Positions 4,498 through 27,042 of a stretch of DNA of 32,000 bases are shown piece by piece (position 1 is the first letter of the stretch; each line of letters begins with the position of its first letter). This DNA is from Flavobacteriaceae bacterium. GTDB taxonomy: Bacteria > Bacteroidota > Bacteroidia > Flavobacteriales > Flavobacteriaceae. The notes under the pieces are model-generated. The model did no database searches and was not told the origin of the DNA. It worked only from the letters and a program-made list of their open reading frames with translations. The position numbers and the translations under genes were made by a program. The stretch covers positions 2,370,001-2,402,000 of the forward strand of contig OZ245049.1 in assembly GCA_965224465.1 (NCBI GenBank), read 5' to 3'.

Positions 4498-5805
4498 CTA
4501 TCTAGAAATTGTAATTTTTACTTGTTTAATTCTTCTCTTATCCATCGCTTCAATCACAAACGTACAGTTTTTAAAAAACAATTGATCATTATTCTTAGGA
4601 AACTTACCTGATATTTCTAAAATAAAACCAGCAATAGTCTCTGACTCACCTTTTTCTTTTTCAAAATCATCAATATTTTCTAAGGACACAATTTTATAAA
4701 AATCTTTAAGCGCTGTCTTCCCTTCAAACACATAATTATTAACATCAATCTTTGAATAGAACAAATCATCATCATCAAATTCATCACTAATATCTCCTAC
4801 TATTTCCTCTATAACATCCTCCAATGTAACAATTCCACTAGTACCTCCATATTCATCTACAACTACCGCTAAATGGATTTTCAAACTTTGAAACTCACTC
4901 AATAAATCATCTAATTTTTTATTCTCTGGAACAAAATAAGGACTCCGAATTAACGCTTTCCATTGAAACTCTTTTTTATCGATGTGAGGTAATAAATCTT
5001 TCGTGTACAATACTCCCACGATATTATCTATAGATTCGCTATAAACAGGATTTCGAGAAAATCCATTTTTTATAATTTTCTTTAGAACTTTGACGTAGGG
5101 TTCTTCTATTGACAATGCGAAAATATCAATTCTTGGTGTCATAATTTGATTGGTTTCTGTAGCGCCAAAACTAACGATACCTTCTAAAATTTTCTTTTCT
5201 CCTTCCGAGGTGGCATCGGTTGCTGTAAGTTCTAATGCTTGAGACAGGCTTTCTATAGAAATATTTGTTTCTTTTTTAGACAATCTTCTTTCTACAAGGG
5301 ACGTCAATCCAATCATAGGAACACTAAAAAATGACAAAAGACTAGCTAAAACCCTAACAGGAATAGCCATAAACGAAGCAAATTTTAATGCATTTCTAGT
5401 GGCATACACCTTTGGAAGAACTTCTCCAAAAAGCACAATCAAAAACGTTACTAACACGACTTCAATTGCAAACTTAAGCTTCTCAGAATCGATAGAGACC
5501 AAAAATATATCTCCTAAATAAGCAAAAATCAGTACTACTAAAATATTGATAAAATTATTAGTGATAAGAATAGTCGCCAGTAATTTTTTAGGATTCTCCA
5601 GCAATTGCGCCACTGTATTTTGTTTTTTAGACGTATGTTCAGAAGCCTCTTGAATCATTAATTTTGACATCGAAAAAAAAGCTACTTCTGCACCGGAAAT
5701 CAGTGCGGAACAAATCAATAAAACAACTAACGCAATACAATTTATAAAAACCAAACCATCTAGGTCAGATAAAAAAGAGTTTATTAATATGGGTTCAGGA
5801 TCCAA
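4498..5805 (-). CDS. gldE: Gliding motility protein GldE (DUF21/CNNM TM domain + CBS pair + CorC/HlyC C-terminal domain)
   Basis: 435 aa with an N-terminal 4-TM domain, a CBS region and a CorC-like C-terminus. It lies directly upstream of gldD. Confidence 0.8.
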   Translation of the reverse strand: MDPEPILINSFLSDLDGLVFINCIALVVLLICSALISGAEVAFFSMSKLMIQEASEHTSKKQNTVAQLLENPKKLLATILITNNFINILVVLIFAYLGDIFLVSIDSEKLKFAIEVVLVTFLIVLFGEVLPKVYATRNALKFASFMAIPVRVLASLLSFFSVPMIGLTSLVERRLSKKETNISIESLSQALELTATDATSEGEKKILEGIVSFGATETNQIMTPRIDIFALSIEEPYVKVLKKIIKNGFSRNPVYSESIDNIVGVLYTKDLLPHIDKKEFQWKALIRSPYFVPENKKLDDLLSEFQSLKIHLAVVVDEYGGTSGIVTLEDVIEEIVGDISDEFDDDDLFYSKIDVNNYVFEGKTALKDFYKIVSLENIDDFEKEKGESETIAGFILEISGKFPKNNDQLFFKNCTFVIEAMDKRRIKQVKITISR

Positions 5806-11892: not shown

Positions 11893-13686
11893 TTAGGTAT
11901 TCGTTTTATTTTTAAAATAGTGAGTAACTTTCAATGCTCTCGATTCTCCTATCACCATTTTTATATCCTCAAAAGATGCTGCTTGCACTCTTTTTGCAGA
12001 TTTAAAATAACGCAATAACGAGATAACTGTTTGATCTCCAATTCCAGAAATGGATTCCAATTCGTTTGAAATTGCAGATTTACTCCGTTTATTCCTATGA
12101 AATGTAATTCCAAACCTATGTGCTTCATTTCTCAAAAATTGTATAATTTTTAAGCTTTCAGATTTTTTATCTAAGTACAAGGGAATAGGATCTTCTGGAT
12201 AATATATTTCCTCCAATCGTTTTGCAATTCCAATAATGGCTATTTTATTTCTAAGTCCAAGTAAATCTAGGCTTTTAACAGCCGACGACAATTGCCCTTT
12301 TCCTCCGTCAATTACAATTAACTGAGGCAATGATTGCTCTTCTGCCAATAAGCGTTTATAACGCCTAAAAACCACTTCTTCCATCGATGCATAATCATCC
12401 GGACCTTCTACTGTTTTTATATTGTAATGGCGGTATTCTTTTTTACTAGGCTTCCCATCTTTAAATACCACACAAGCAGCTACAGGATGTGTCCCTTGAA
12501 TGTTTGAATTATCAAAACACTCTATATGTCTTGGCTCAGAAGACAGCCGTAAATCGGATTTCATCTGGCTCATTATACGTTTTACATGACGTTCTGGATC
12601 AACAATTTTTAATTGCTTAAATTTTTCTTGGCGAAAATAATTGGCATTTCTAAGAGACAATTCTACAATTCGTTTTTTATCTCCCAACTTAGGAACTGTC
12701 ACTTTTATATCCGCTCCCAAATTCACTAAAAAAGGCACATAAATCTCTTTGGTGTTCAACTGAAAACGCTGCCTCAATTCTACGATTACCAATTCCAATA
12801 ATTCTTTATCCGTCTCGTCTAATTTTTTCTTTACCTCTGTTGTATGTGACTGAATAATTGCACCATTAGAAATCTTAAAAAAATTGATATAACCATAACT
12901 CTCGTCAGAAATAATAGTAAACACATCTACATTGTGAATGGAAGGGTTTACTACGGTAGATTTTGATTGATAATTTGCCAATAAAGCAACCTTTTCTTTG
13001 ATGCTTTGCGCTTCTTCAAACTCCATATTAGATGCATAATTCATCATTAAAGTATGCAATGCCTCCAGAGATTCTTTAAAATTTCCTTTTATTATATTCC
13101 GAATTGCTTTGATATCAAACTCATAATTCTCCTCTGTTTGCAGCCCTTCACAAGCACCTTTACAATTCCCTATATGATAATCTAAACACACCTTATACTT
13201 CCCTTCAGAGATGTTTTTAAAACTTAAATCAAAGTTACATGTCCGTATTTTATACAGTTCTTTTATCAAATCCAACAAGGCTCTTGCTGTGCGCACATGA
13301 GTGTAGGGACCAAAATATTCAGAACCATCTTTGATGATTCTACGGGTTAAAAAAATGCGCGGAAAACGTTCTTTTTTGATGCAAATCCAAGGATACGTTT
13401 TATCATCTTTTAACATGATATTATAACGGGGCTGGTATTTTTTTATTAGATTATTTTCTAATAGCAATGCATCTGCCTCCGTATCCACGATAATGTGTTT
13501 AATACTCACTATTTTTTTAACCAACACACGTGTTTTACCATTATCATGTGTTTTGGTAAAATAAGAAGACACCCTACTTTTAAGATTCTTAGCTTTTCCC
13601 ACATATAAAATCACCTGATCTTTATCGTAATACTGATAAACACCTGGTAAACTTGGCAAGGTTTTTATTTGAATTTCTAAGTCCAA
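11893..13686 (-). CDS. uvrC: Excinuclease ABC subunit C
   Basis: GIY-YIG N-terminus (GVYQYYD...ILYVGKAKNL), a UvrBC domain and a C-terminal HhH. 597 aa. Confidence 0.95.
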   Translation of the reverse strand: MDLEIQIKTLPSLPGVYQYYDKDQVILYVGKAKNLKSRVSSYFTKTHDNGKTRVLVKKIVSIKHIIVDTEADALLLENNLIKKYQPRYNIMLKDDKTYPWICIKKERFPRIFLTRRIIKDGSEYFGPYTHVRTARALLDLIKELYKIRTCNFDLSFKNISEGKYKVCLDYHIGNCKGACEGLQTEENYEFDIKAIRNIIKGNFKESLEALHTLMMNYASNMEFEEAQSIKEKVALLANYQSKSTVVNPSIHNVDVFTIISDESYGYINFFKISNGAIIQSHTTEVKKKLDETDKELLELVIVELRQRFQLNTKEIYVPFLVNLGADIKVTVPKLGDKKRIVELSLRNANYFRQEKFKQLKIVDPERHVKRIMSQMKSDLRLSSEPRHIECFDNSNIQGTHPVAACVVFKDGKPSKKEYRHYNIKTVEGPDDYASMEEVVFRRYKRLLAEEQSLPQLIVIDGGKGQLSSAVKSLDLLGLRNKIAIIGIAKRLEEIYYPEDPIPLYLDKKSESLKIIQFLRNEAHRFGITFHRNKRSKSAISNELESISGIGDQTVISLLRYFKSAKRVQAASFEDIKMVIGESRALKVTHYFKNKTNT

Positions 13687-14336
13687 TAGAAAGGTTTATT
13701 TTTTATTAAATGTATCAACTAATTTCGTGTCAGAATTACCAATCAACTTATACCCACTTGATAATTAATACAGTTATGTTAACTATTTAATTAATTACTC
13801 AGGTGCATTTATACTTAAAGAGGATCAATATCCTTTTTTATACCTGTGGATCAAAACAATCTCTAAAACAGGAATTCCATTTAAGAACCTCCTCTTTTTC
13901 ATTATAATCATTTGAGTTTACATCCGCATTAAAACAGAGACTACTTGTGTTTTAATAACTTTTAGCACGCTCTTTTTTCCAAATTTATAATCTTATAAAA
14001 ATATTTTTACAACAAAAAAACAACAGCCCCCTTAAGAATTCAGTTCTAAAGCAACTCTTTCTCAAAGATACCGCATTCGATTTTTTTAATAGTAGTTTTC
14101 TTCTTTTGTTATTAATTATTCTTAATAAGCATTCAAAAGTATGAAAAAAAACTCCCTATTAAAAAAATACACGCATATTTAATGCGTTTTTCCTTACAAT
14201 AAAACACAGGATAAAGATACTGCATTTATCTAGGTAATTCAACATCCCTAAACAGCAGCTAAAAATCAAGTAAACACAGAATTCTGATTCCTTAATTAAT
14301 TAACATTATTATTCGTGAATAAATCAATAAAATAAC

Positions 14337-14344
14337 TACTTTTG
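14337..14344 (+). promoter_or_regulatory. Candidate -7 box TACTTTTG upstream of repeat copy A
   Basis: Exact TAnnTTTG match. If used, repeat A would be transcribed as part of a roughly 300-nt leader of the decarboxylase gene. Confidence 0.3.
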
Positions 14345-14419
14345 CAAAATAGTTTAAAAAAATACATAAAAAAGGGGTGTGTTTTATATAATACCTAAAA
14401 TACCAGTACAACCCAAAGC

Positions 14420-14594
14420 GTTCAGAGAATAACACCAATTACAATCCAAAATGACCTATATAAATAGTTTGTTTTACGTTCTAGCGTTGTTGAAAAACAG
14501 AGCGACAGCTAAGGCTATCCTTCCATTTTTCGCCTAGCAATAACAAAAAATAATTCGATTTCTAAACCGTCACTTGGAAAATATATTTGGTATA
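14420..14594 (+). repeat. Interspersed repeat, copy A (full length; core 14433-14594)
   Basis: Starts CACCAATTACAATCCAAAAT and ends CCGTCACTTGGAAAATATATTTGGTAT. Aligns by eye over its whole length with copies B, C, F and G. Shares an upstream GTTCAGAG with copy B. Confidence 0.9.
14559..14589 (+). promoter_or_regulatory. Promoter-like module inside the 3' end of repeat A (TTTC - 19 nt - TATATTTG)
   Basis: Perfect -7 box TATATTTG at 14582-14589. A near -33 (TTTC versus TTTG) lies at 14559-14562. The decarboxylase ATG is 64 nt downstream. Confidence 0.45.
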
Positions 14595-14652
14595 ACTCTC
14601 AAACACTAAGACAAAGCAATGGCAGGCACCCCACCTAAAATCAATTATTTAG

Positions 14653-15888
14653 ATGAAATACTGGAAAAAATTGTCTCATGACAAATTAAAGAAAAAAATT
14701 GACAAAGCCTTAAAGTCAACTGTTGATTTTCAAGAGAACTGTTACCTTGGATACCCTGTATCAAAATTAGACGAAAACGTATTTAACACTAAAGGTTCGT
14801 TTTTAAAAGAATCCCCTTTATTAAAATCATATATAGCCAATCCGAACAATATCGGATGCCATACTGTAGGAAAATCTGAATTGGCTTTTAAAGGTTCTCA
14901 AGAATTAGAAAAAGAAGTATTAGAAGTACTTGCCATAGATATATTTAAGGCAAAGAAGAACGAATATGACGGCTATATTGCCACTGGAGGAACCGAAGCT
15001 AATATCCAAGCCTTGTGGATTTACAGAAATTTATACAAAAATGATTTTGGAGCTAGCAACGACGAAATGGTTATTTTATCTTCTGAAGACACACATTATT
15101 CTGTATATAAAGGTTCAAATATCCTTAGCGTAGATGCCGTGAGTATTCCCGTAGATTTTGAGACCCGAAAAATAAATACCCAAGAACTAGATGCTATTGT
15201 AGCCAAACTTATCAAAGAAGGAAAAAAATACTTTATGGCAATTTCTAACATGGCTACTACCATGTTCGGATCTGTAGACGACCCAAATGTATATGCTGAT
15301 GTGTTTTTAAAATACAACGTGCCATTTAAAATACATATTGATGGTGCTTTTGGAGGGTTTATCTACCCTATTTCCAATTTAAAATCTCCTATTAACTTTA
15401 CAAATCCTCACATATCATCTATCACCATAGATGCACATAAAATGTTACAAGCTCCCTACGGAACAGGTGTGTTTTTATGTCGTAAAAACCTAATACAACA
15501 CGTACTCACCAAAGAAGCGAAATATGTAGACGGAATGGACTTAACCATGGTAGGAAGTAGGTCTGGCGCCAATGCCATTGCTGTTTGGATGATTTTATTT
15601 AGCTATGGATTTTATGGATGGTACGAAAAAATAAACACGTTACTTCTAAGAACCAATTGGCTATGTAAACAATTAGATGCTCTTAAAATTGATTATTACC
15701 ACGATCCTTATGTAAACATTGTAACCATCAGATCGCATCATATTACAGATAAAGTAGCCGAGAAATTTGGCTTAGTTCCAGACACTCATGATGAGAATTG
15801 CAACTGGTACAAAGTAATTATCATGGATCATGTAGAGATTGATGACTTACAAAAATTTATGACTGCTTTAAAGAAAAGCAACTCCTAA
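14653..15888 (+). CDS. Group II PLP-dependent decarboxylase (MfnA / tyrosine-aspartate decarboxylase-like); substrate unknown
   Basis: The GGTEANIQAL motif and the Schiff-base lysine context SITIDAHKMLQAPYGTG are typical of group II decarboxylases. 411 aa. Confidence 0.8.
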   Translation: MKYWKKLSHDKLKKKIDKALKSTVDFQENCYLGYPVSKLDENVFNTKGSFLKESPLLKSYIANPNNIGCHTVGKSELAFKGSQELEKEVLEVLAIDIFKAKKNEYDGYIATGGTEANIQALWIYRNLYKNDFGASNDEMVILSSEDTHYSVYKGSNILSVDAVSIPVDFETRKINTQELDAIVAKLIKEGKKYFMAISNMATTMFGSVDDPNVYADVFLKYNVPFKIHIDGAFGGFIYPISNLKSPINFTNPHISSITIDAHKMLQAPYGTGVFLCRKNLIQHVLTKEAKYVDGMDLTMVGSRSGANAIAVWMILFSYGFYGWYEKINTLLLRTNWLCKQLDALKIDYYHDPYVNIVTIRSHHITDKVAEKFGLVPDTHDENCNWYKVIIMDHVEIDDLQKFMTALKKSNS

Positions 15889-15959
15889 ATTAGGCTTCCA
15901 ATTACACGGGTTTTAACAGTTTTTTAAAAAAACTACAAATTCATTATTTACAATAAAAA

Positions 15960-15989
15960 GTACGCTTATACAAAGCGTGCTTTTTTTTT
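15960..15989 (+). terminator. Rho-independent terminator after the decarboxylase gene
   Basis: GTACGCTT (15960-15967) pairs with AAGCGTGC (15973-15980), with one wobble. A 9-T run follows (15981-15989). Confidence 0.7.
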
Positions 15990-16123
15990 ATGAAATTATT
16001 TTAACACAAAACCTCAGGCCTTCTAAATTAAATTCAAAATACTTTTTTTTGTTATTTCATGTTGCCCCATACAAGAAGGATTGCAACTTAGTTGTATTAC
16101 TTTTTAGGCTTACTTTAAAATTG

Positions 16124-16298
16124 GTTCAGAGGCGTCTACACCAATTACAATCCAAAATAACCAATATAAATGATTTATCATACGTTCTAGCATTGTTGAA
16201 AAACAGAATGATAGCTATGCTATCCATCCATTTTCCGATTAGTTAAAACAAAAAATAATTCCATTCCTAATCCGTCACTTGGAAATATATTTGGTATT
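16124..16298 (+). repeat. Interspersed repeat, copy B (full length; core 16139-16298)
   Basis: Same termini and internal blocks as copy A, and a perfect TATATTTG at 16286-16293. It explains the spurious 89-aa ORF at 15977..16246. Confidence 0.9.
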
Positions 16299-16506
16299 CC
16301 TTTTTCAACCTACTAAGCAGGGAAATTCTTATAAATATACGGCTAGACGCCAAAAAAATTTACAACTTGAACAAATCAAACTCAGGAAATAAACATAAAA
16401 AAGTATGCGTTCAGACTAATTATAAAATACTTTTTTATACTTCAAAATTCTTGTATTTTTATACGAACTAATCAAGCACTAGCTTTCTTAAACATCCCTG
16501 AAAATA

Positions 16507-17334
16507 ATGAAAAAACACTACTTCATAATAGCACTATTTTTAACAGTAATACTAAGTTGCAAGGAAACACCTTCTCAAATTATTAAATCACACGTTTATT
16601 TACAAAAGGAAGGTAAAGAGAAAAAAGATTGGAAATTAATTTGGCAAGATCATTTTAGCGAATCCAAATTAGACACAACCAAATGGTCGCTAATTCCTCC
16701 AAACAAGTCAGATTGGGGAAAACACCTAACAACTAGCAAACAATGCTATACTATTTCAGATGGAAAACTATTTTTAAAAGGAATTGTCAATCCAGATACT
16801 CTAAAAGATTCAAGACCATTTTTAACTGGAGGAATTTATTCTAAAGGGAAATTTGCCTTTCAATACGGTAAAATTGAAATACGCGCAAAGTTAGCGTCTG
16901 CTCAAGGTGCCTGGCCAGCTATATGGATGCTAGCTGAACAACATAAATATGGTGCTTACCCAAGAAATGGTGAGATTGACATTATGGAGCACCTCAACTA
17001 TGACGACATCATCTACCAAACAACACACTCCTATTATACGTTGGAGCTAAAGCAAAAAATGAATCCACCACATTATGGAACTAAAAAAGTAAATGTCGGT
17101 AAATATAACACGTATGGATTGGAATGGTATCCCGATAAATTGGTGTTTACATTAAATGATAAAACAACTTTTATATACCCAAGAATTAACGGGGTGGATT
17201 CTTCTCAATGGCCCTATGATCAACCCTTTTACATTTTAATAGACCAACAACTTGGTGGATCTTGGGTAGGAAAAGTAAATGCAGAGGAATTACCAGTTCA
17301 AATGATTATTGACTTTGTAAAAGTGTATCAATAA
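16507..17334 (+). CDS. Glycoside hydrolase family 16 lipoprotein (laminarinase/beta-glucanase-like)
   Basis: Lipobox ILSC. The GH16 catalytic motif ExDxxE is present as EIDIME. The concanavalin-like fold signature WPAIWM is also present. Confidence 0.85.
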   Translation: MKKHYFIIALFLTVILSCKETPSQIIKSHVYLQKEGKEKKDWKLIWQDHFSESKLDTTKWSLIPPNKSDWGKHLTTSKQCYTISDGKLFLKGIVNPDTLKDSRPFLTGGIYSKGKFAFQYGKIEIRAKLASAQGAWPAIWMLAEQHKYGAYPRNGEIDIMEHLNYDDIIYQTTHSYYTLELKQKMNPPHYGTKKVNVGKYNTYGLEWYPDKLVFTLNDKTTFIYPRINGVDSSQWPYDQPFYILIDQQLGGSWVGKVNAEELPVQMIIDFVKVYQ

Positions 17335-17485
17335 TTTCATAATAAAAGGGATTTAATTCAGTGGAACAAGCTATTTAAACCACCTTAACATGTTGTTTTC
17401 CTGAATAGAAGTTTACAATTCACACGCCTTAGCACAACACAAATTTATTGTTCTAACACCTATTTAACCTTTTAATCTAATGTTA

Positions 17486-17609
17486 CACCAATTGCAATCC
17501 AAAATAACCGTTATAAATAGTTTGTTTTACGTTCTAGGGTTGTTAAAAAACAGAACGATAACAAAGGCTATCCTTAGTTATTTCGCCTAGCTAAAACAAA
17601 AAATAATTA
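17486..17609 (+). repeat. Interspersed repeat, copy C (3'-truncated; lacks the CCGTCACTTGG module)
   Basis: About 87% identical to copy A by hand alignment over 124 nt. It ends 6 nt before the stop codon of the arsP-like gene. Confidence 0.85.
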
Positions 17610-17614
17610 CATCT

Positions 17615-18592
17615 TTACAATAAAATATTAAACACATACCCCGATATCATAATACAGATAGTAACTACACTAAAAAAGATGGCGATCAATTGTAAACTCA
17701 TTACTTTTTTTAACAACAGAGCTTCAGGCAAGGAAAGTCCAATCACACCCATCATAAAAGCAATGGCAGTTCCTAAGGGAATTCCTTTAGCTACCAACAC
17801 TTGTACCACGGGTAATATACCTGATGCACCCGCATACATTGGAACACCCAAAACAGTAGCTATAGGTACAGACCACCAGTTCTCTTTACCCATATATTGC
17901 TCAAAAAAACCTGTAGGAACATACCCATGCATCAAGGCACCAACAGCCAATCCAACCAAAACATAAAGAACAATTCCTTTTAATATAGAAGTAGTTTCTG
18001 ACCAAATAAAAGGCAGACGATTTCTAAAAGACCTGTGTTTTTGTGAAAAACCTTCCGTTTCTTTCGTGGCGTTTATCAATACGTCTTGCACCCAGGGACT
18101 CAAGTATTTTTCCAATTTTAATTGCTGTAAAAACATTCCAGAAAACGTACCTAAAAGCACACCTATCACCACATAAATCACCGTAGTTTTTACACCAAAC
18201 AAACCAATAAATAAACCGATAGCTACTTCGTTAACCAATGGTGAGGTTATCAAAAAGGAAAACGTGACTCCCAAAGGAATTCCACCTTTTACAAAACCTA
18301 TAAATAAGGGTACAGAGGAACAAGAGCAAAAAGGGGTGACTACTCCAAACAGGGAAGACATCAAATACTCAAAACCATATAATTTTTTTCGAGAGAGGTA
18401 ATTACGCACTTTTTCTACAGGAAAATAACTATTTACAATCCCCATAAAAAAGATAATCACAAAAATAAGTAGCATTATTTTAATACTATCGAAAATAAAA
18501 AAGTTGAGTGCCTTTCCGAAACTACTCGTTATATGGATGTCAAAAACATCAAATACCAGCCAATCTGCAAACTTTTGTAACCAATTAAACAT
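17615..18592 (-). CDS. ArsP-like permease (PF03773-type predicted permease)
   Basis: 325-aa polytopic protein with the TPFCSCS motif in a TM segment. As I recall, this motif characterises organoarsenical efflux permease ArsP. It is the last gene of the ars cluster. Confidence 0.7.
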   Translation of the reverse strand: MFNWLQKFADWLVFDVFDIHITSSFGKALNFFIFDSIKIMLLIFVIIFFMGIVNSYFPVEKVRNYLSRKKLYGFEYLMSSLFGVVTPFCSCSSVPLFIGFVKGGIPLGVTFSFLITSPLVNEVAIGLFIGLFGVKTTVIYVVIGVLLGTFSGMFLQQLKLEKYLSPWVQDVLINATKETEGFSQKHRSFRNRLPFIWSETTSILKGIVLYVLVGLAVGALMHGYVPTGFFEQYMGKENWWSVPIATVLGVPMYAGASGILPVVQVLVAKGIPLGTAIAFMMGVIGLSLPEALLLKKVMSLQLIAIFFSVVTICIMISGYVFNILL

Positions 18593-18605
18593 AGCTCTTT
18601 ACTTA

Positions 18606-19640
18606 TTATTTTACGTAGAAACGTTTTTTCAAATACAAGGAAATATTTACTAATAAAATAAGCACTGGAACTTCCACTAAGGGACCTATAACTCCTGTAA
18701 ATGCTTGAGGAGAATTCAATCCAAATATTGCAATAGCAACAGCTATTGCTAATTCAAAATTATTTCCCGTAGCAGTAAATGCCACCGATGCATTCCGTTT
18801 ATAATCAATCCCCATAGCTTTCCCTAGAAAGAAACTCACAAAAAACATCACCATAAAATAAATAACAAGAGGTACAGCTATGCGGAATACATCCCTCGGG
18901 ATTTCCAATATCATATCACCTTTTAAACTAAACATCAATACAATAGTTGCCAATAATGCAATCAATGTAATCGGGGAAATAAAAGGAATAAAGGTATGAT
19001 TGTACCAGTCTATTCCTTTGAGTCTCACCAAGTACTTTCGACTTAAAAAACCTGCTAAAAACGGCAATCCAAGATAAATAAGAACACTCTTCGCTACTTC
19101 CCATACAGAGATAGTCACATCAAACCCTTCTACTCCAAAATAAGGAGGCAATACCGTAATAAACAACCATGCATAAAAGCTATAAGTAAACATCTGAAAA
19201 ACACTATTCAAAGCTATTAGTGTCGCACTATATTCACGAGAGCCTCCTGCCATATCGTTCCAAACAATCACCATAGCAATACAACGTGCCAGTCCTATCA
19301 GAATAACTCCAGACATATATCCTGGGTAATCTCTTAGAAAAACAACAGCCAATACAAACATCAAAATAGGCCCCACTATCCAGTTTAAAAACAAAGACAT
19401 GGTCATTAATTTGGTATCTTTAAGTACCGTAGGAATTAAGCTGTAATCAACTTTTGCTAATGGCGGATACATCATTAATAACAGTCCTATTGCTAAAGGG
19501 ATATTGGTAGTCCCAACAGTCAAAGATTCCGTTAGATTTTTAATGCTTGGAAAAACATAACCGAATCCTACCCCAATAGCCATCGCTAAAAAAATCCATA
19601 AGGTTAAATAACGATCTAAAAATTTTAATCTTGTTTTCAT
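18606..19640 (-). CDS. acr3: ACR3 family arsenite efflux transporter
   Basis: N-terminus [17 protein letters not shown] and the conserved Cys context GLARCIAMV are typical of ACR3/ArsB(Acr3). Confidence 0.9.
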
Positions 19641-19676
19641 AAGTAAGTATTGAAAATTGAATAGTGAATAGTGAAA

Positions 19677-20156
19677 TTAACAACAGTCACTTCCACTGCA
19701 TGACTCCTTGTTTGTATCACTCGTAGGGGCACAGCAAACATCTAATGCTTTACACCTAGAATCCACCAAAGCCAAATTTACAAGTAACCTTTGATAATTT
19801 ACATCCAAAGAAGCTACCGACATAACCGATGTATGAAATTGCGCATTGCCATATTCAAATTTTATTTCAGTCTCCATTAATAATGGCTTGACTTGGTTTA
19901 CTCGCTTAAATATAGCCAATGCTTTCTCCGATTTCAAATAAGTCCTTTTCTCTAATTCTGTAGGACTTTCCCATAATTGAACAATGGTTTCTTGCCAATA
20001 ATTAGGAGTACCTCCACAATCTACTGTGTCAAAAGTAACATTCTTAATTTCGGTGATGTGATAATTAGCCCCAACCAATTCTCCCTCTTGGTATTGAAAC
20101 ACCAATTCTTTATTAATATGAGCAGCTAATTGTTGTATAAATTCGTTTGTTTTCAT
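19677..20156 (-). CDS. DUF6428-like ars-associated protein with a Cys-rich C-terminal tail
   Basis: I prefer the start at MKTNEFIQQLAAH (20156). The longer ORF (to 20240) would overlap the upstream gene. The protein ends ...CKALDVCCAPTSDTNKESCSGSDCC. The family assignment is from memory of Bacteroidetes ars clusters. Confidence 0.6.
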   Translation of the reverse strand: MKTNEFIQQLAAHINKELVFQYQEGELVGANYHITEIKNVTFDTVDCGGTPNYWQETIVQLWESPTELEKRTYLKSEKALAIFKRVNQVKPLLMETEIKFEYGNAQFHTSVMSVASLDVNYQRLLVNLALVDSRCKALDVCCAPTSDTNKESCSGSDCC

Positions 20157-20209
20157 AAGTGCGTATTTAGTAGTGATTAGTAATAACGGGCAGTAAAATT
20201 CCTTAAGAA

Positions 20210-20503
20210 TTAACAACAAGAAGTAGCTCCTCCACAACAAGGAGTATCCATAGCCTCATTGGCTAAAATAGCTACTAATAGATTTTTACATTCCTCTTTT
20301 GAAGGAACTTTTCCTGACAAAACTACTTTATCATCAACCACAATAGCAGGAGTACTCATTACATCATACTTCATTATTTGCTGTATATCTTCTACTTTTA
20401 TAACAGAGACTTCTATACTTAATTCAGTAACCAACTCTTTAACTATCGCTTCTGTAGCTTTACAATTTGCACAGCCAGTTCCTAATATTTTTATTGTTTT
20501 CAT
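20210..20503 (-). CDS. Thioredoxin-fold protein (redox-active disulfide protein 2 type) with a Cys-rich tail
   Basis: Start at MKTIKILGTGCANC, which carries the CxxC. The 28-codon upstream extension looks non-coding. The C-terminus reads ...DTPCCGGATSCC. Confidence 0.75.
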   Translation of the reverse strand: MKTIKILGTGCANCKATEAIVKELVTELSIEVSVIKVEDIQQIMKYDVMSTPAIVVDDKVVLSGKVPSKEECKNLLVAILANEAMDTPCCGGATSCC

Positions 20504-20629
20504 AGTATCCTTTTTAATAATTACACATAATTCGTAAACATTCGTCAAAATAAACCTTGTGTCAAACCTCCTGGCTTTCCCCAACAAAGATTGTCCTGTT
20601 TGTTACCCTCCTGTTTCTAACTGGCATTA

Positions 20630-20703
20630 CATCAATTAATACACAAAATAATCGATATAAATAATTCTTTTTCTAAACCGTCACTTGGAAATTTAATTGG
20701 AAT
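20630..20703 (+). repeat. Interspersed repeat, mini copy D (internally deleted; both termini retained)
   Basis: CATCAATTAATACACAAAATAATCGATATAAATA matches about 30/38 of the 5' end of the consensus. It is joined directly to AATTCTTTTTCTAAACCGTCACTTGGAAATTTAATTGGAAT, the 3' module. The copy overlaps the arsR stop codon. Confidence 0.75.
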
Positions 20704-21044
20704 TACTCTTCACAACTTCCCATACAGCAATTTTTATCAAAAAAATGACTGAATAGCTCCCTTGCTTTACTCCAATTTTCGGTATGGATGCAATATCTAA
20801 TTTTAGGCGCTTCTACTTGCCCCTGTATTAAGCCTGCCGATTTTAATTCTTTTAAATGTTGAGATATCGTAGACTGAGCCAATTGCAATACAGTTACCAA
20901 TTCACCCGTATAACAGCAACTTTGACTGGACAAATAATTTAAAATCTTAAGCCTAGCAGGATGCCCTAATGCTTTTGCATACTTTGCCAGTAGTTCTGTT
21001 TCTACTAAATAATTCACCTTTTGATTAGTTCGCTGTATACTCAT
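20703..21044 (-). CDS. arsR: ArsR/SmtB family metalloregulator
   Basis: Winged-HTH protein with a CC pair in the metal-site helix (SQSCCYTGELV) and a Cys-rich tail (NCCMGSCEE). The ATG at 21044 (MSIQRTN) is preferred. The ORF-track start at 21056 is a TTG codon. Confidence 0.85.
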   Translation of the reverse strand: MSIQRTNQKVNYLVETELLAKYAKALGHPARLKILNYLSSQSCCYTGELVTVLQLAQSTISQHLKELKSAGLIQGQVEAPKIRYCIHTENWSKARELFSHFFDKNCCMGSCEE

Positions 21045-21248
21045 AGTTAATCGCAAATATACGATTGATATTTATAAAGATACGTGTTTTTTCTATTAAA
21101 TTTTAAAATGATATTTAAAAGCAGGTGAATTAAGAAATGAACGCCGCATCTCTTTTTTAAATTTTCCTCCTGTAAAACCTTTCCTATTCTAGTGAAAAAA
21201 AAGCCAAAAACTCCGGGAGATTACACCCTAACTAAACGTCAAATTTCA

Positions 21249-22163
21249 CTAAAAGATAGAAGTCTCTAAGTCCGTAGTAAATGCTTCTAAAAACAGAATA
21301 CCTTTATAAGAATTCCCTTTCAAATTGAGTTTTGGACTCCATACAGCAATACTATATTGATGAGGATGAACAGCAATAATACCCCCACCAACACCACTTT
21401 TCCCAGGCAAACCTACCTTGAAAGAAAACTCACCAGCTTCGTCATAGAAACCACATAATTGCATTATAGCATTGATTCGTTTGGACATACTGGGACAAAT
21501 AACCGTCTCTTTAGTTGTGGGATTTACACCATTATTAGCTAAATATAAAAAAGTAGTTGAAAGCTCTTTACACGTCATTTCAATAGAACAGAGATTGTAA
21601 TATAAATCCAATACTTCCGATACATCGTTGTGTATATTTCCATACGATTTCATTAAATTTACTAAGGCGGCATTACAGAAGCCTGTTTCTTTTTCAGAAG
21701 CCTGAATGCGTGGACAAAAATCAATTTTGTGATTGTTTGATACCGAACGAATAAAATTTAATAATTCCTGTTTCGGATTTTTATAATGACTTATCAATAC
21801 ATCAATAATTACCAAAGCACCACCATTGACTAGGGGATTACGTGGAATTCCTTTATTGTGTTCTAATTGCACTAAGGAATTAAATGAAGTTCCCGAAGGC
21901 TCCACACCAACACGTTTCCATAAATTCTCACCTTCCAATTTATAAGCCATAGTAAGAGACAACACTTTTGCAATACTCTGTATAGAAAACGTAACATTGG
22001 AATCACCAAAACTAGAATTCTGATTATCAATCGTCGTCAAATGAACCCCGAATTTAGAGGGGTCTACATTGTTTAATTCTGGAATATAACTTGCAACACG
22101 CCCTAAATCTGGAGAGCTTTGTAAATCAAAGAAGATTTCTGAAAATAAATTTGAATAATTCAT
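21249..22163 (-). CDS. glsA: Glutaminase A
   Basis: 304-aa serine-dependent beta-lactamase-like fold with S-x-x-K (SIQSIAKV). Glutaminase signatures ...PRNPLVNGGAL... and GLPGKSGVGGGI are present. Confidence 0.9.
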   Translation of the reverse strand: MNYSNLFSEIFFDLQSSPDLGRVASYIPELNNVDPSKFGVHLTTIDNQNSSFGDSNVTFSIQSIAKVLSLTMAYKLEGENLWKRVGVEPSGTSFNSLVQLEHNKGIPRNPLVNGGALVIIDVLISHYKNPKQELLNFIRSVSNNHKIDFCPRIQASEKETGFCNAALVNLMKSYGNIHNDVSEVLDLYYNLCSIEMTCKELSTTFLYLANNGVNPTTKETVICPSMSKRINAIMQLCGFYDEAGEFSFKVGLPGKSGVGGGIIAVHPHQYSIAVWSPKLNLKGNSYKGILFLEAFTTDLETSIF

Positions 22164-22214
22164 AGGAGCTAAATTTCTCCTATAAAATTAGGCAATTTAT
22201 AGCTGAAAAAGATG

Positions 22215-22266
22215 ATTAAAATCAGGATGAATACCATTTATAACTGTCACTTGGAAATGTATTTAA
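22215..22266 (+). repeat. Interspersed repeat, mini/partial copy E
   Basis: CCATTTATAACTGTCACTTGGAAATGTATTT matches the 3' module. The preceding ATTAAAATCAGGATGAATA weakly resembles the 5' end of copy G. It lies 52 nt upstream of the divergent glsA start. Confidence 0.6.
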
Positions 22267-22823
22267 CATTAGATAGAAATGATAATACGATAGATGCATT
22301 GCCAACTTTAAAACAAAACGGATTAAAAACTGACACTCATTAAAAGCCCTTCTTAAATAAAGACAAACCAAGGATACAATAATACTTCCGAAAGAATATT
22401 TTCTATTGTACAATTAAACCCGCCATCTATAATTAAAAATCATTTTAAAAAAAAATTAATACTTACATCAATTCTCTCACAATAAACCTTGAGGAATGTA
22501 GTTTAAACAAAGGAAACAAGAACAAAAAGACATCCCTAAATCATCTTTCAAAAACAACCGTATGATTTATAAAAAACCTAATAAAGACAAGAGACCTAAC
22601 CAGAATCATAAACAACAAGTACCATTTTAATTGATTAAATAACATTAGATCCCACCGAAACAAAACAATAAAACCCAAAGATTAACAGTACGTATCAATC
22701 ATTCAACCACATACAATTCAACAACAAAATAGCACCAGATTTATTTGGTATTCAAAAATCAAAATAACGTATCCCCAATACTTGAACGATACGATTTAAA
22801 TTAACAACCATTAACTATAAAAC

Positions 22824-23687
22824 ATGAAGTACAAACTATTATTTGCTATTGCCTTATTATTGACAATAGTATCCTGTGAAAAATCTAATATAGAAGAAGA
22901 TCTACCAACAAAAACTGATAAAACTGACCCTAAAGATGACGGCGCAAAAACAGATGTTTTGATTTTGAATACCATCATCAAGTCTATTGACAAAGCTCCT
23001 GAAAAATTTACTAAAAAATTCCTAATTGAAGACTATACTGCTACATGGTGCTATCTCTGTCCAAAAATGACGGAAGCTATAGAAAAAGCTATGAAGACGT
23101 ATCCAGACATCGCTTATAACATCAATATCCACTCGTCTAACGGTGGGGACCCCTATGGAAATGCCATCACAAAAGCATTACAAGTTAAGAATGATGTCAC
23201 AGGATTTCCAAGAAGCTATTTAGACCGTAAAGATAGATATGGAGTTAACAGTAGAAATTATATTGAAATTGACATAAAAAAAGAGCTAAACAAAAACTAT
23301 TACTTAGGTCTAGGAATACAAACAAGCCTCAAAGAAAAAACATTAAAAGGCTATTTTGAATATGCAATAAACAAGGACATAACAGAGGAATTAACCTATA
23401 CCATATACATTACCGAAAGCGGGCTAGAACATCAGCAAGAAGGGTCTGCTACAGGCATAGCATCTCAAGATAATCTATTGAGAGAACGACTAACAAATGT
23501 ACACGGAGATGCTATTCCAACTGACAAACAGGCTAAAAATACCGTATATAAAATGGCTTTTGAACATGTATTTGAATCTGAAATAGTCTTAGAAAACAGC
23601 AATATCGTAGTATTCATTTCAAATAAAGAAGGAACAGTAATTAACATCCAACAAGTAAAAATTGGAGACAACAAAGCATTTGACTAA
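22824..23687 (+). CDS. Lipoprotein with an N-terminal thioredoxin-like CxxC region (Omp28-related type)
   Basis: Lipobox TIVSC and the motif YTATWCYLCP. The family name is from memory, so function confidence is low. Confidence 0.6.
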   Translation: MKYKLLFAIALLLTIVSCEKSNIEEDLPTKTDKTDPKDDGAKTDVLILNTIIKSIDKAPEKFTKKFLIEDYTATWCYLCPKMTEAIEKAMKTYPDIAYNINIHSSNGGDPYGNAITKALQVKNDVTGFPRSYLDRKDRYGVNSRNYIEIDIKKELNKNYYLGLGIQTSLKEKTLKGYFEYAINKDITEELTYTIYITESGLEHQQEGSATGIASQDNLLRERLTNVHGDAIPTDKQAKNTVYKMAFEHVFESEIVLENSNIVVFISNKEGTVINIQQVKIGDNKAFD

Positions 23688-23764
23688 ATAGTTATTTAGA
23701 AAATTATTTGAAATAATCTTACGATCTCTAAAAAAGAATCTGTGAAATTCTTATCAACACCTTT

Positions 23765-23804
23765 GAACAACCAAGTATCGTTTTCCATGCTTGGTTGTTC
23801 TTTT
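23765..23804 (+). terminator. Rho-independent terminator
   Basis: GAACAACCAAG (23765-23775) pairs perfectly with CTTGGTTGTTC (23790-23800). TTTT follows. Confidence 0.7.
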
Positions 23805-23903
23805 ATAAATCATACGTACTTATAAAAATAGCATACGCAACACGTAAACAAACTCCAAAAAAAGAACAGGAGCCTACCAGCAACCAAAACAAATAAAACA
23901 CCG

Positions 23904-24389
23904 ATGAAAAAAATATTAACCCTAGCTACCTGCTGCTTTATAGCAACAAGTATCTACGCACAAAAAATGCCTGATATCCCACTAAAAACACTGAGTGGAT
24001 CAACTGTATTAGCCTCAGAGTTAAGTACTGGTAAAGGCCCCATACTCGTAACATTCTGGGCTACTTGGTGCAGTCCTTGCATACAAGAGCTCGATGCATT
24101 AAACGACGAGTATATTGACTGGGAAGAGGAAACAGGTGTTAAAATAGTAGCCATCGCTACAGACGATGCTCGGAGTCAATCTAGAGTTAAAATACTCAGT
24201 AATGGCAAGGGTTGGGAATTTGACATTTACAAAGACGACAACCAAGAACTTAAAAGAGCTTTGGGAATAACAACAATTCCGTTTACCTGTATTTTGGATG
24301 CAAAAGGAACTATTATTTGGAAACATACAGGATACACTCCTGGCAGCGAAACAGATATTATCGAATTTTTAAGAACCTTAAAAAAATAA
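23904..24389 (+). CDS. TlpA/ResA-like periplasmic thiol:disulfide oxidoreductase
   Basis: Signal peptide, FWATWCSPC active site and AhpC/TSA-like length (161 aa). Confidence 0.85.
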   Translation: MKKILTLATCCFIATSIYAQKMPDIPLKTLSGSTVLASELSTGKGPILVTFWATWCSPCIQELDALNDEYIDWEEETGVKIVAIATDDARSQSRVKILSNGKGWEFDIYKDDNQELKRALGITTIPFTCILDAKGTIIWKHTGYTPGSETDIIEFLRTLKK

Positions 24390-24392
24390 ATA

Positions 24393-25988
24393 GTGATGAA
24401 AAATTCAATCTTATTTCTGATCTTCATAGTGTGCTCATTTTCGACTACATTGGAAGCACAAATATTTAACCACCATAATTTAACGGGTAGTTTAGAAACG
24501 AATAACAAATATTATTTTGACGACAATTTAACAGGCGCAGAACGTCCTTCAGGTAACTTTGGCTCTAATAGCTATTTACAACTAAATTACACGAGCGGAA
24601 AAATAAGTACTGGACTGCAATACGAAGCCTATTTACCCCCTTTATTGGGTTATAATTCTAAATATGACCACAGTGACATCACACACAAATACCTAACATA
24701 TAGAGATAAAAAACTAACATTCACTGTCGGAAATTTTTACGAACAATTTGGTAGTGGATTACTATTTAGAGCATGGGAAGATCGTCAATTAGGGCTCAAT
24801 AACTCGATTGAGGGCATCAATATACATTTTAAACCAACAGATTATATCTATTTAAAAGCTGTTTACGGAAAACAACGAACTTACTTTACAACGGCAGATT
24901 CGAAGATAAGGGGTATCGATGCAGAAATATATATAAATCAGCATCATAAAACAAACATAAACATTGGCTTAGGAATTATACAACGTTATGAAGCCTATAC
25001 GGGGGCCCTCAAAGATTTTCCGGAAACCACCACCGCCTACTCTGGACGTATGAACCTACGTAGTGGAATTGTAGATCTTAGTTGTGAATATGTTTACAAA
25101 GGAAAAGACGGTATCCTATTCGGAAAAGCAATAAGTTCCGAAGGAAGTGCACTCTTGATAAACAATAGCTATAGTTTTTACGGTTTTGGCGCAAATATAT
25201 CCTTACGAAGACTCGAAAACATGAACTTTAGAGGAATGCAAAAAGCAAGTAACAATGAGCTTTTATTAAATTACCTACCTAGCAATACCAAGCAACAAAC
25301 GTACAGCTTAGCATCTCTTCACCCCTATGCAACAGTATCCATGGGAGAAATAGGCGGGCAACTAGATTTGTACTACACCTTAAAACGAAACAGCTCCTTA
25401 GGAGGTAAATACGGAACTCAAATTGCATTTAACTTTTCTAAATATTTTAAATTAGAAGGAAAAACAAGCCAAGAATCTTATTATACAGAAAGTAGTTTTA
25501 TACCACAAAACCCAACTGCTTTATACTACAATTACAACTTAGAACTAAAAAAGAAATGGAGTAAACGGTTTAAATCTAGCCTGAGTTACATCAAACAAAT
25601 GTATAATAAAACCGAATTAGAAGGAACGCAGTACGAGATTATTAAAAGTGATATTATTGCGGCAAATCTACTGTTTACATTCAACAATAGAAACAGTTTA
25701 AAAATAGAGTTGCAGCATCTATCAAGTCAAGATGACGACAAAAACTGGGCATCGACACTTTTAGAATTTAGCACTGCCAAAAGGTGGTCTCTATATGCTA
25801 GTGACATGTATAATTACGGAAAAACAAACATCCATTATACAAATTTCGGAATTGCTTACAACAAGGGAACAAGCCGAATGGAATTTAGTTATGGAAGACA
25901 ACGAAAAGGTTTAATCTGCGTAGGTGGTGTCTGTAGACTGGTACCTGCCGCTACTGCCCTATCCTTTAATCTTAGTAAAACCTTTTAA
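24393..25988 (+). CDS. Predicted outer-membrane beta-barrel protein (DUF6029-like)
   Basis: Signal peptide, an alternating beta-strand pattern rich in Y/G/N, and a C-terminal aromatic residue (...LSKTF). It starts 4 nt after the TlpA stop, which suggests co-translation as one unit. Confidence 0.6.
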   Translation: MMKNSILFLIFIVCSFSTTLEAQIFNHHNLTGSLETNNKYYFDDNLTGAERPSGNFGSNSYLQLNYTSGKISTGLQYEAYLPPLLGYNSKYDHSDITHKYLTYRDKKLTFTVGNFYEQFGSGLLFRAWEDRQLGLNNSIEGINIHFKPTDYIYLKAVYGKQRTYFTTADSKIRGIDAEIYINQHHKTNINIGLGIIQRYEAYTGALKDFPETTTAYSGRMNLRSGIVDLSCEYVYKGKDGILFGKAISSEGSALLINNSYSFYGFGANISLRRLENMNFRGMQKASNNELLLNYLPSNTKQQTYSLASLHPYATVSMGEIGGQLDLYYTLKRNSSLGGKYGTQIAFNFSKYFKLEGKTSQESYYTESSFIPQNPTALYYNYNLELKKKWSKRFKSSLSYIKQMYNKTELEGTQYEIIKSDIIAANLLFTFNNRNSLKIELQHLSSQDDDKNWASTLLEFSTAKRWSLYASDMYNYGKTNIHYTNFGIAYNKGTSRMEFSYGRQRKGLICVGGVCRLVPAATALSFNLSKTF

Positions 25989-25993
25989 GTTTG

Positions 25994-26151
25994 ACACCAA
26001 ATACATTTCCAAATGACGGTTTAGAAATGAAATTACTATTTGTTTTTAAGCAAGTGAAAATGGATGGATAGCATAGCTATCGTTCTGTTTTTCAACTACG
26101 CTAGAACGTAAAATAAAATATTATATCGGTTATTTTGGTTTGTAATTGGTC
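25994..26151 (-). repeat. Interspersed repeat, copy F (full length, inverted orientation)
   Basis: The reverse complement reads GACCAATTACAAACCAAAATAACCGATATAAT...CCGTCATTTGGAAATGTATTTGGTGT. The copy begins 6 nt after the stop of the beta-barrel gene. Confidence 0.9.
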
Positions 26152-26248
26152 TAAGTTCAGAATAGCATACATTTTTAGAATCTTTATCCTTTTAATCTAC
26201 GTCTATTCAAAAGTATAAAAAAAAGGTTCTAAAAGTGTATTATATTTT

Positions 26249-26397
26249 ACACCTAATGCATTTACAGATAACGGTTTAGAAATGGAATTAATATTTATTT
26301 TATCTAGGCAAATACTCTAAGGATAGCCTTATCGTTCTATTTTTTAACGACGTTAGAACGTAAGATAAACTATTTATATCGTTCATTTTAATTACAG
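26249..26397 (-). repeat. Interspersed repeat, copy G (full length but degenerate termini, inverted orientation)
   Basis: The reverse complement aligns from AAAATGAACGATATAAATAG through CCATTTCTAAACCGTTATCTGTAAATGCATTAGGTGT. It lies in tandem with copy F, 49 nt downstream of lspA. Confidence 0.85.
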
Positions 26398-26445
26398 TAC
26401 CCACAAAAAGTAAATAGCTTTAACAACGCTGTTTCACATCAGAAA

Positions 26446-27042
26446 CTAGGTCTTAGGAAAAATCCGTTTATTAAAAAGAATCATTAGGGTAACCCCCATA
26501 GAAATAGCACTGTCGGCAATGTTAAAAATAGCATTGAAAAAAGTAAATTCTCTCCCTCCAAAATAAGGAATCCAAGAAGGCAAATCCACCGTAAAAAAAG
26601 GGAAATACAACATATCTACCACTTTACCGTGAAAAAGAGACCCATAAGGTTGGTCTGCAAATAACGTAGCTGTTTCTCTAAAAGGAGTATCAAAAATAAT
26701 TCCATAAAAAACAGAATCAATAATATTCCCTACTGCACCAGCAAAAATCATAGACACCGCAATAATTAGGATTTTATGCGTACCTTTTTTAATAGAAGTA
26801 AACAACCAATATCCAATACCAGAGATAGCGACCAAGCGGAATAATGTTAAAAATAATTTCCCTGTTTTTCCACCAAACTCAGCTCCCCATGCCATGCCAT
26901 TATTTTCAATAAAACGAATTTTGAACCATTCAAAAACAACTACTTCACCAGCACTTCCCATCAAGAAATTGGTTTTGATATAGATTTTACTAATTTGATC
27001 AATTAATAAAATAAGAACGATGATAATGATTGATTTTTTCAA
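26446..27042 (-). CDS. lspA: Lipoprotein signal peptidase II
   Basis: 198-aa 4-TM protein with the conserved regions ...NNGMAWG... and ...FNIADSAI.... Confidence 0.9.
   Translation of the reverse strand: MKKSIIIIVLILLIDQISKIYIKTNFLMGSAGEVVVFEWFKIRFIENNGMAWGAEFGGKTGKLFLTLFRLVAISGIGYWLFTSIKKGTHKILIIAVSMIFAGAVGNIIDSVFYGIIFDTPFRETATLFADQPYGSLFHGKVVDMLYFPFFTVDLPSWIPYFGGREFTFFNAIFNIADSAISMGVTLMILFNKRIFPKT

Follow-up and report, generated by a model that had tools for sequence, protein, structure and literature searches.

A previously unnamed family of probable miniature inverted-repeat transposable elements in a variable stretch of the genome of a marine Flavobacteriaceae bacterium

The 32,000-nucleotide stretch analysed here, from a Flavobacteriaceae bacterium (GenBank assembly GCA_965224465.1, contig OZ245049.1, positions 2,370,001 to 2,402,000 of the forward strand; hereafter the window), raises the question of what kind of sequence recurs seven times, as copies A to G, within 12 kb between uvrC and lspA, and by what route the copies came to lie there. 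The evidence assembled below indicates that the copies very probably belong to a previously unnamed family of transposable elements of the miniature inverted-repeat type (MITEs), moved in trans by a DDE transposase whose presence in the cell we infer. The truncated copies at the edges of two strain-specific gene segments pose the further question of whether such elements have also taken part in the gain of genes at this locus.

Copies, ends and empty sites of the repeat

A profile was built from the long copies and searched with nhmmer over a space of 64 kb (the window, both strands), to which the E-values refer. Both this profile and a repeat finder applied to the two strands recovered all seven copies that an original prediction had aligned by hand, five of them long (E 1e-35 to 1e-48) and two of them fragments; the alignments hold, and the profile finds no eighth match anywhere in the 32 kb, the ~19 kb of flanking housekeeping DNA being free of copies as had been claimed. 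Pairwise identity between copies is 73-89%, in keeping with the predicted divergence of roughly 10-25%. The assignment to length classes stood for A, B and F (full length) and for C (3'-truncated) but had to be amended for G, described earlier as full length, which lacks the first ~13 nt. The element is ~160 bp long, AT-rich (~30% G+C) and non-coding. All copies are intergenic, the sole overlap being with a mechanical 89-aa open reading frame (ORF) across B; no ORF is common to the copies, and indels of 1-4 nt between them break the reading frame, so that the non-coding character proposed from the letters is borne out. Copies B and F have subtype substitutions in common (ATGCTATCCATCC), and E resembles F in sequence. 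Pfam scans of 25 of the larger ORFs of the window, which include every gene from uvrC to ileS, found no transposase or recombinase, again as predicted.

Wider searches yielded one further copy. A 26-nt degenerate motif taken from the central hairpin, which is conserved in all long copies, was scanned against 185,579 genomes representing species and matched a single one, the Flavobacteriaceae metagenome-assembled genome (MAG) NORP129 (locus L001). The copies in the window show a star-like pattern, in which each of them except F is closest to the NORP129 copy, and the latter best matches the consensus. The central-hairpin motif and a 3'-end motif gave zero matches in JGI metagenomes (two scans) and in IMG/VR (two scans), and blastn of the element against the plasmids of PLSDB and the phages of INPHARED returned no match.

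The whole element is an imperfect palindrome, its two arms being imperfect inverted repeats of each other around the centre GATAGCTAAGGCTATC. When the left arm of the NORP129 copy is globally aligned to the reverse complement of its right arm, the score is 28, compared with -6.8 +/- 4.7 for shuffled sequences (0/500 reaching it), and in the nhmmer profile search the element matches its own reverse strand. The NORP129 copy, which is the least decayed, folds as one long imperfect hairpin, with z-scores of -4.7 on the plus strand and -6.7 on the minus strand. The termini have the consensus 5'-YAYCAATTA...TAATTGGWR-3', with CCAAWT/AWTTGG as the core of the terminal inverted repeat, and end-anchored comparison of ACCAATTACA with ACCAAATACA gives 8-9 matches out of 10 in A, B, F and the NORP129 copy. 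Copy D keeps ~35 nt of each end and has lost the centre, and its two remaining parts meet at a microhomology, AAATA; it is an internal-deletion derivative of the element.

Close relatives provide the empty sites against which these ends can be read. The UvrC protein encoded beside the repeats is 91-94% identical to those of Flavobacteriaceae MAGs and metagenome scaffolds and ~80% identical to those of Lutibacter and Polaribacter, and seven related loci (L003, L005, L007, L008 and L012-14) share the gene order uvrC, decarboxylase, ArsP, ACR3 ... glutaminase, lspA, dksA, ileS. None of these seven loci contains a copy of the element at E<=1; in all, ~144 kb of other loci, among them the syntenic stretches of 4-5 related populations, gave zero copies at that threshold. 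By blastn, copy A is an insertion of 168 nt within otherwise collinear DNA, and it is a clean one relative to all seven loci, whose empty sites read GAGAATCCTTCTC, GAGAATCTAATCTC and GAGGCTCAAGTCTC. The filled site is GAGA[ATAAC]ACCAATT...TTTGGT[ATAAC]TCTCAAAC, and the corresponding empty sites are GAGAATCCTTCTCAAAC in L005, GAGAATCTAATCTCAAG in L007 and GAGGCTCAAGTCTCAAAC in L012-14; accordingly, TAA flanks the copy at 14430-14432 and 14593-14595, within a 5-bp repeat, ATAAC, at 14429-14433 and 14592-14596. Opposite copy D, L003 has a gap of 80 nt that falls between ...CATTCC and CACAAC..., with GGC[ATTAC]ATCAATT...ATTGGA[ATTAC]TCTT as the filled site and TTCATTCC|CACAAC as the empty one. Here TTA lies on both sides (20627-20629 and 20703-20705), again within a 5-bp repeat (ATTAC), and the right-hand TTA is the stop codon of ArsR. 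The NORP129 copy lies past the stop codon of a purF-like gene, ahead of that gene's intrinsic terminator, and is missing at the same site in L009, L010 and L011, whose PurF proteins are 95-96% identical. Its filled site is GCGTAT[TAA]TATCAATT...ATTGGTA[TAA]GAAG, the empty site is GCGTAC TAA GGAG (L009 and L010), and the lone TAA of the L009 empty site aligns to both flanking TAA of L001.

A TWA is thus duplicated at each of the three insertions for which an empty-site comparator exists (TAA at A, TTA at D, TAA in NORP129), the flanking repeat reaching 5 bp at A and D. At two of these three insertions, D and the NORP129 copy, the site is a stop codon, which is restored by the duplication. Copies C, E and G are truncated and fall outside the comparison of target duplications.

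Nature of the element and its probable mode of movement

Taken together, the small non-coding unit, its inverted termini, the duplication of TWA, the empty sites in relatives, the deletion derivative that keeps both ends and the presence of a copy at another locus of a second genome argue that the family is very probably a MITE. The transposase, the family to which it would belong and any present-day activity are presumed, the DDE class being suggested by the target duplication, and an IS5/Harbinger-like enzyme is a guess made from TWA alone. In the model proposed here, a transposase encoded elsewhere in the genome would bind the two termini and either cut out or copy the element, which would then be inserted at TWA sites with duplication of 3 bp, possibly 5 bp. 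Insertions would survive only where they are harmless, as in the loop of a leader hairpin (A), on stop codons (D and the NORP129 copy) or in long spacers of recently acquired DNA, and the copies would thereafter decay neutrally. Survival only at harmless positions would explain why the copies cluster in the accessory stretch from uvrC to lspA and are lacking in the packed housekeeping flanks. Clustering is thus most simply a matter of insertion tolerance, as the housekeeping flanks are nearly free of spacers and the accessory stretch has long AT-rich ones; local reinsertion, or import together with foreign DNA, may add to it. The long hairpin, for its part, is an inherited design in decay and not a structure under selection. 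It had been proposed that the density of copies lies beyond that of ordinary elements, and this does not hold, as the element is built like an ordinary MITE, and it is nothing exceptional for copies to gather where the window has its only long and dispensable intergenic DNA.

Several known systems invite comparison. Bacterial MITEs such as the Neisseria Correia elements, RUP of Streptococcus pneumoniae and MITEAba12 of Acinetobacter are, like the present element, AT-rich sequences of ~100-200 bp without coding capacity; they too end in inverted repeats and are flanked by a short target duplication, and the long and short forms of Correia elements parallel the full-length and internally deleted size classes seen here. 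Again like the present element, bacterial MITEs insert between genes, including in untranslated regions (UTRs) and operon spacers, and vary in presence or absence between close relatives. The present element is not known to share sequence similarity with Correia, RUP or MITEAba12, and its arms are inverted along their whole length; the target duplications also differ, being TA for Correia and 9 bp for MITEAba12, compared with TWA, and termini of YAYCAATTA, here. Tourist-like MITEs and the PIF-Harbinger/IS5 superfamily (IS1031, ISL2 and IS427 groups) duplicate a 3-bp TWA (TAA/TTA) and include small, AT-rich, hairpin-like elements. The duplication is the sole link between that group and the present element, and the 5-bp repeat at two of the sites would not fit it. 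Repetitive extragenic palindrome (REP) doublets, known as REPINs or BIMEs, are likewise intergenic, hairpin-forming, ~100-160 bp long, built of inverted arms and often found just past stop codons; however, REPINs consist of two short REP palindromes and produce no target duplication, whereas the present element has flanking duplications and terminal inverted repeats.

Closer in phylogeny are the MITEs of Porphyromonas, a member of the same phylum. In P. gingivalis, BrickBuilt, MITEPgRS/MITE464, MITE239 and MITE700 are non-coding, intergenic and present at ~10-20 copies per genome, are connected by their terminal repeats with transposases of the IS5 family, and often lie beside mobile or rearranged DNA (PMC4596501). 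Their terminal repeats, GAGACC... (GAGACCTTYGCA) or ACGTCAGTTCGA (PMC4596501), differ from the YAYCAATTA of the present element, and they carry internal tandem repeats, which the present element lacks. Together with the lack of any Rfam match, Flavo-1 included, this difference in termini is in keeping with the original prediction, which did not recognize the repeat as a named family. A survey preprint covering 46,051 genomes of Bacteroidota lists 81,380 unique MITE candidates, so that a family still without a name is to be expected; a search of the literature on MITEs of Flavobacteriaceae found nothing specific. The family leaves current understanding unchallenged, as an ordinary kind of element, unnamed until now, in the variable region of a marine Flavobacteriaceae genome. 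It would add a MITE family to a group in which few have been described individually, with three pairs of filled and empty sites that define its ends and its TWA target. For annotation, it is useful to recognize that 160-bp hairpins in a leader, an ars operon and a 3' UTR could pass for regulatory RNAs. The family also marks genome flux between strains of a lineage for which most of the evidence comes from subseafloor and marine MAGs, where such repeats break assemblies.

Six observations weigh against the identification as a MITE. No autonomous insertion sequence (IS) with corresponding ends came to light, although no search aimed at one was made. Only one other genome among the 185,579 carries the central motif and the two motif scans of JGI metagenomes gave no match, so that a high copy number would be conjecture. 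Unanchored local alignment of the terminal 35 nt scores no better than shuffled sequence and the strict terminal repeats are short, for which reason only short terminal repeats and symmetry of the whole arms are claimed here. The flanks do not match at B (CTA vs TTC) or at F (TTA vs TCA, in element orientation), and a 3-bp TWA in DNA of 33% GC carries little information per site. Finally, copies A and B share words in their flanks, GTTCAGAG at 6-7 nt before the 5' end and TNTCAANC..ACTAAG after the 3' end, and those of A are ancestral, being present in the empty sites. These shared words hint at a target preference or at copying of the element with short flanks; the flanks of the copies are otherwise unrelated.

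Other origins can be envisaged for a repeat of this shape. Were the element derived from a single-strand (Y1/HUH) transposon, either as a REPIN moved by a REP-associated tyrosine transposase (RAYT) or as a palindrome-associated element (PATE) of IS200/IS605 descent, it would insert 3' of a fixed word without duplication. The folding of the entire element into a long hairpin on both strands would suit such an origin, as would the likeness of the tetranucleotides on the left side of most copies (TAAC, CTAC, TTAC, TTAC, TTAG and TAAT), which resemble T(T/A)AC and recall the TTAC target of IS608. Such a derivation is nonetheless improbable, as the words at the right end vary and, at all three informative sites (a small sample), covary with the left flank, which favours a duplication over an end encoded by the element; in addition, the termini are inverted repeats, and Pfam scans of the window found no Y1 transposase gene. 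A family of structured small RNAs or cis-regulatory RNAs (leaders, terminators or small-RNA paralogues) was suggested by the stable predicted folds and by the placement of A in a 5' leader, of D inside the ars operon and of the NORP129 copy in a 3' UTR ahead of the terminator, so that several copies are probably transcribed, and TATATTTG, which fits the Bacteroidetes -7 box TAnnTTTG, occurs in the 3' end of A and B. Yet the copy closest to the consensus has no -7 box, the copies show no consistent orientation towards neighbouring genes, close relatives lack them at orthologous positions, and Rfam gave no match at the gathering score over the window nor at E<=5 on the copies (13600-26500), Flavo-1 included. 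The RNAalifold covariation terms are unfavourable on both strands and the substitutions are uncompensated, with 85.0% of cells paired compared with 85.1 +/- 0.7 after shuffling; for the long-hairpin structure, the covariation score of the six long copies, a sample of six sequences, was reached by 424/500 shuffles. The missing Rfam match, the unfavourable covariation and the lack of compensatory changes in base pairs led us to reject an RNA family as quite improbable. Immobile spacer sequence, multiplied by local segmental duplication or by gene conversion, would account for the confinement of all seven copies to 12 kb and for the flank words shared by A and B; such an origin is hardly credible given a near-consensus copy with sharp boundaries at an unrelated locus of another genome, the sharp boundaries and flanking duplications at A and D, and the otherwise unrelated flanks of the copies. 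A MITE thus remains the preferred identification.

Strain-specific gene segments and their breakpoints

The copies are interspersed with genes (called with Pfam) as follows. On the left, uvrC (11893-13686, minus strand) is followed by ~1 kb of non-coding DNA and copy A, then by a gene for a decarboxylase dependent on pyridoxal phosphate (14653-15888, plus strand), copy B, a GH16 gene (16507-17334, plus strand) and copy C. Next come, on the minus strand, genes for an ArsP permease, ACR3, DUF6428 and a thioredoxin-like protein, then copy D, ArsR, glutaminase (minus strand) and copy E, and on the right Omp28-like, TlpA-like and DUF6029 genes (plus strand), copies F and G, and lspA, a dksA-like gene and ileS (minus strand). 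Coordinates of the copies and of the segments discussed below are collected in Table 1.

Table 1. Positions of the repeat copies and of associated features (window coordinates unless a locus is named)
Feature	Position	Strand	Remarks
Copy A	14433-14592	+	full length, 160 bp; nhmmer E 5e-48
Copy B	16139-16296	+	full length, upstream of strain-specific GH16 gene; nhmmer E 2e-44
Copy C	17486 to about 17614	+	3'-truncated; nhmmer E 3.5e-35
Copy D	20630-20702	+	73-bp internal-deletion derivative, both termini kept; nhmmer E 1e-7 (3' part), 0.009 (5' part)
Copy E	22226-22268	+	3' fragment only, ~43 bp; nhmmer E 6.5e-5
Copy F	25995-26151	-	full length; starts 6 nt past DUF6029 stop codon; nhmmer E 8e-44
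Copy G	26250-26391	-	first ~13 nt of 5' end missing; adjoins lspA; nhmmer E 7e-37
Eighth copy	L001 (NORP129) 5381-5539	-	81-89% identical to window copies; flanks unrelated
Shared flank words of A and B	14419-14427, 16124-16132, 16408-16416; 14597-14613, 16302-16318		
Decarboxylase leader	14370-14652	+	conserved; split by copy A into 14370-14432 and 14596-14652
GH16 segment	~15996-17601	+	strain-specific vs L003; bears GH16 with copies B and C
Decarboxylase/ArsP slot	window 15889-17614; L003 8013-8122; L005 2257-2314; L007 2184-3556; L012 2078-3156		
Omp28/TlpA/DUF6029 segment	22226-26441	+	strain-specific, 4.2 kb; E at left, F and G at right

Two segments of this stretch are strain-specific. 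The slot between the convergent decarboxylase and ArsP genes has three states, being empty in L003 and L005, occupied by an Exo_endo_phos gene in L007, L008, L012 and L013, and occupied by GH16 in the window; the relatives that vary at this slot have no copy of the element. The region of copy B is missing from the relatives, and ~140 nt of strain-specific DNA lie outside B. In place of the 4.2-kb Omp28/TlpA/DUF6029 segment, L003 has a 274-nt spacer between glutaminase and lspA, of which roughly the distal 215 nt are replaced in the window. Outside the source genome, the closest homologues of the DUF6029 protein are 69% identical (in a Logan contig, L002, where TlpA and DUF6029 are likewise paired) and, next in order, ~52% identical (Marinifilaceae), which suggests that the segment was acquired from a distant Bacteroidota lineage; the base composition of the inserted segments shows no anomaly.

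The edges of these segments coincide with copies. Copy C is truncated in a junction zone of ~24 nt (17594-17617) that can be aligned both to the interior of the element and to ancestral sequence beside the ArsP stop codon, the blastn breakpoints near C being 17602-17627. Copy E starts exactly where the homology to L003 stops, at the left-hand breakpoint of the 4.2-kb segment (blastn 22225), with a 9-nt overlap, TAAAATCAG, in the junction alignment, and copy G lies ~50 nt from the right breakpoint. Copies B and F, which face the cassettes, have no matched flanking repeats. The breakpoints of two strain-specific insertions thus fall exactly where C and E are cut short, with microhomology at these truncated ends. 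The copies may therefore also have served as recombination substrates, probably taking part in the events by which both gene segments were brought in or rearranged, and they offer a concrete test case for MITE-promoted gene gain.

Two further explanations of the locus turn on these same breakpoints. One regards the copies as recombination sites of a cassette array, like the attC sites of integrons or of integrase-lacking attC clusters (CALIN), each imperfect palindrome marking a cassette boundary. The succession A-decarboxylase-B-GH16-C does look like an alternation of genes and sites, the copies form imperfect palindromes that vary in length and have conserved ends, insertion breakpoints fall exactly where C and E end, and the gene content of the decarboxylase/ArsP slot differs from one relative to another. 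On the other hand, the same slot varies in relatives devoid of the element, 140 nt of strain-specific DNA lie outside B, the copies are of mixed orientation, solo insertions with duplications occur in a leader loop and on stop codons, a reading by eye found no RYYYAAC/GTTRRRY core at the element ends, and Pfam scans found no tyrosine recombinase or integrase in the window, all of which make an attC-like nature highly improbable. B-GH16-C was also considered as a composite transposon and rejected, as ~140 nt of strain-specific DNA lie outside B and C has no outer end; those 140 nt and the variation of the slot in copy-free relatives leave any simple composite-transposon or attC-like model unsupported. 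The other explanation, that the copies are handles for the capture or swap of gene cassettes and the locus a MITE-driven hot spot without an integrase, is rather unlikely. Under it, incoming DNA bearing a copy would recombine with a resident copy on one side and be joined through microhomology on the opposite side, or two copies would move together as a composite, and either course would yield the GH16 and Omp28/TlpA/DUF6029 segments with the truncated copies C and E as their edges.

The decarboxylase leader and neighbouring spacers

Copy A, as a probable MITE insertion, interrupts a leader of ~130 nt ahead of the decarboxylase gene that is contiguous in the relatives (L003 9345-9475, L005 3545-3672, L007 4785-4915 and L012 4385-4515, all on the minus strand) and is much better conserved among them than other spacers are. 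Its predicted fold comprises an outer GGGGU/ACCCC stem and a GAGA/UCUC hairpin, with copy A in the variable apical loop. The intact leader of L007 has no Rfam match, and no covariation is visible among four sequences that are nearly identical. On the basis of its conservation and predicted fold, the leader may be an undescribed cis-regulatory RNA.

Some minor observations concern the spacers around the copies. Beside the flank words of A and B, GCGTTCAGA recurs ~110 nt downstream of B. A second variable spot lies between uvrC and the decarboxylase leader, where ~480 nt of the window (13731-14210) have no counterpart in the relatives, L003 has ~325 unrelated nt, and a DUF4230 gene is present in L005 and L006; in the spacers of the window, tblastn found no remnants of DUF4230 or Exo_endo_phos. 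The decarboxylase gene is followed, at 15950-15990, by a strong hairpin of an intrinsic terminator (GTACGCTT...AAGCGTGC ahead of a T run), with a similar one in L003 (8045-8075, minus strand); a match of this terminator to the Rfam family Thr_leader was weak (26.8 bits vs a gathering score of 55) and was set aside as spurious. In the slot region of L007, at 2540-2690, an (AGT)n microsatellite flanks a scaffold gap (N run).

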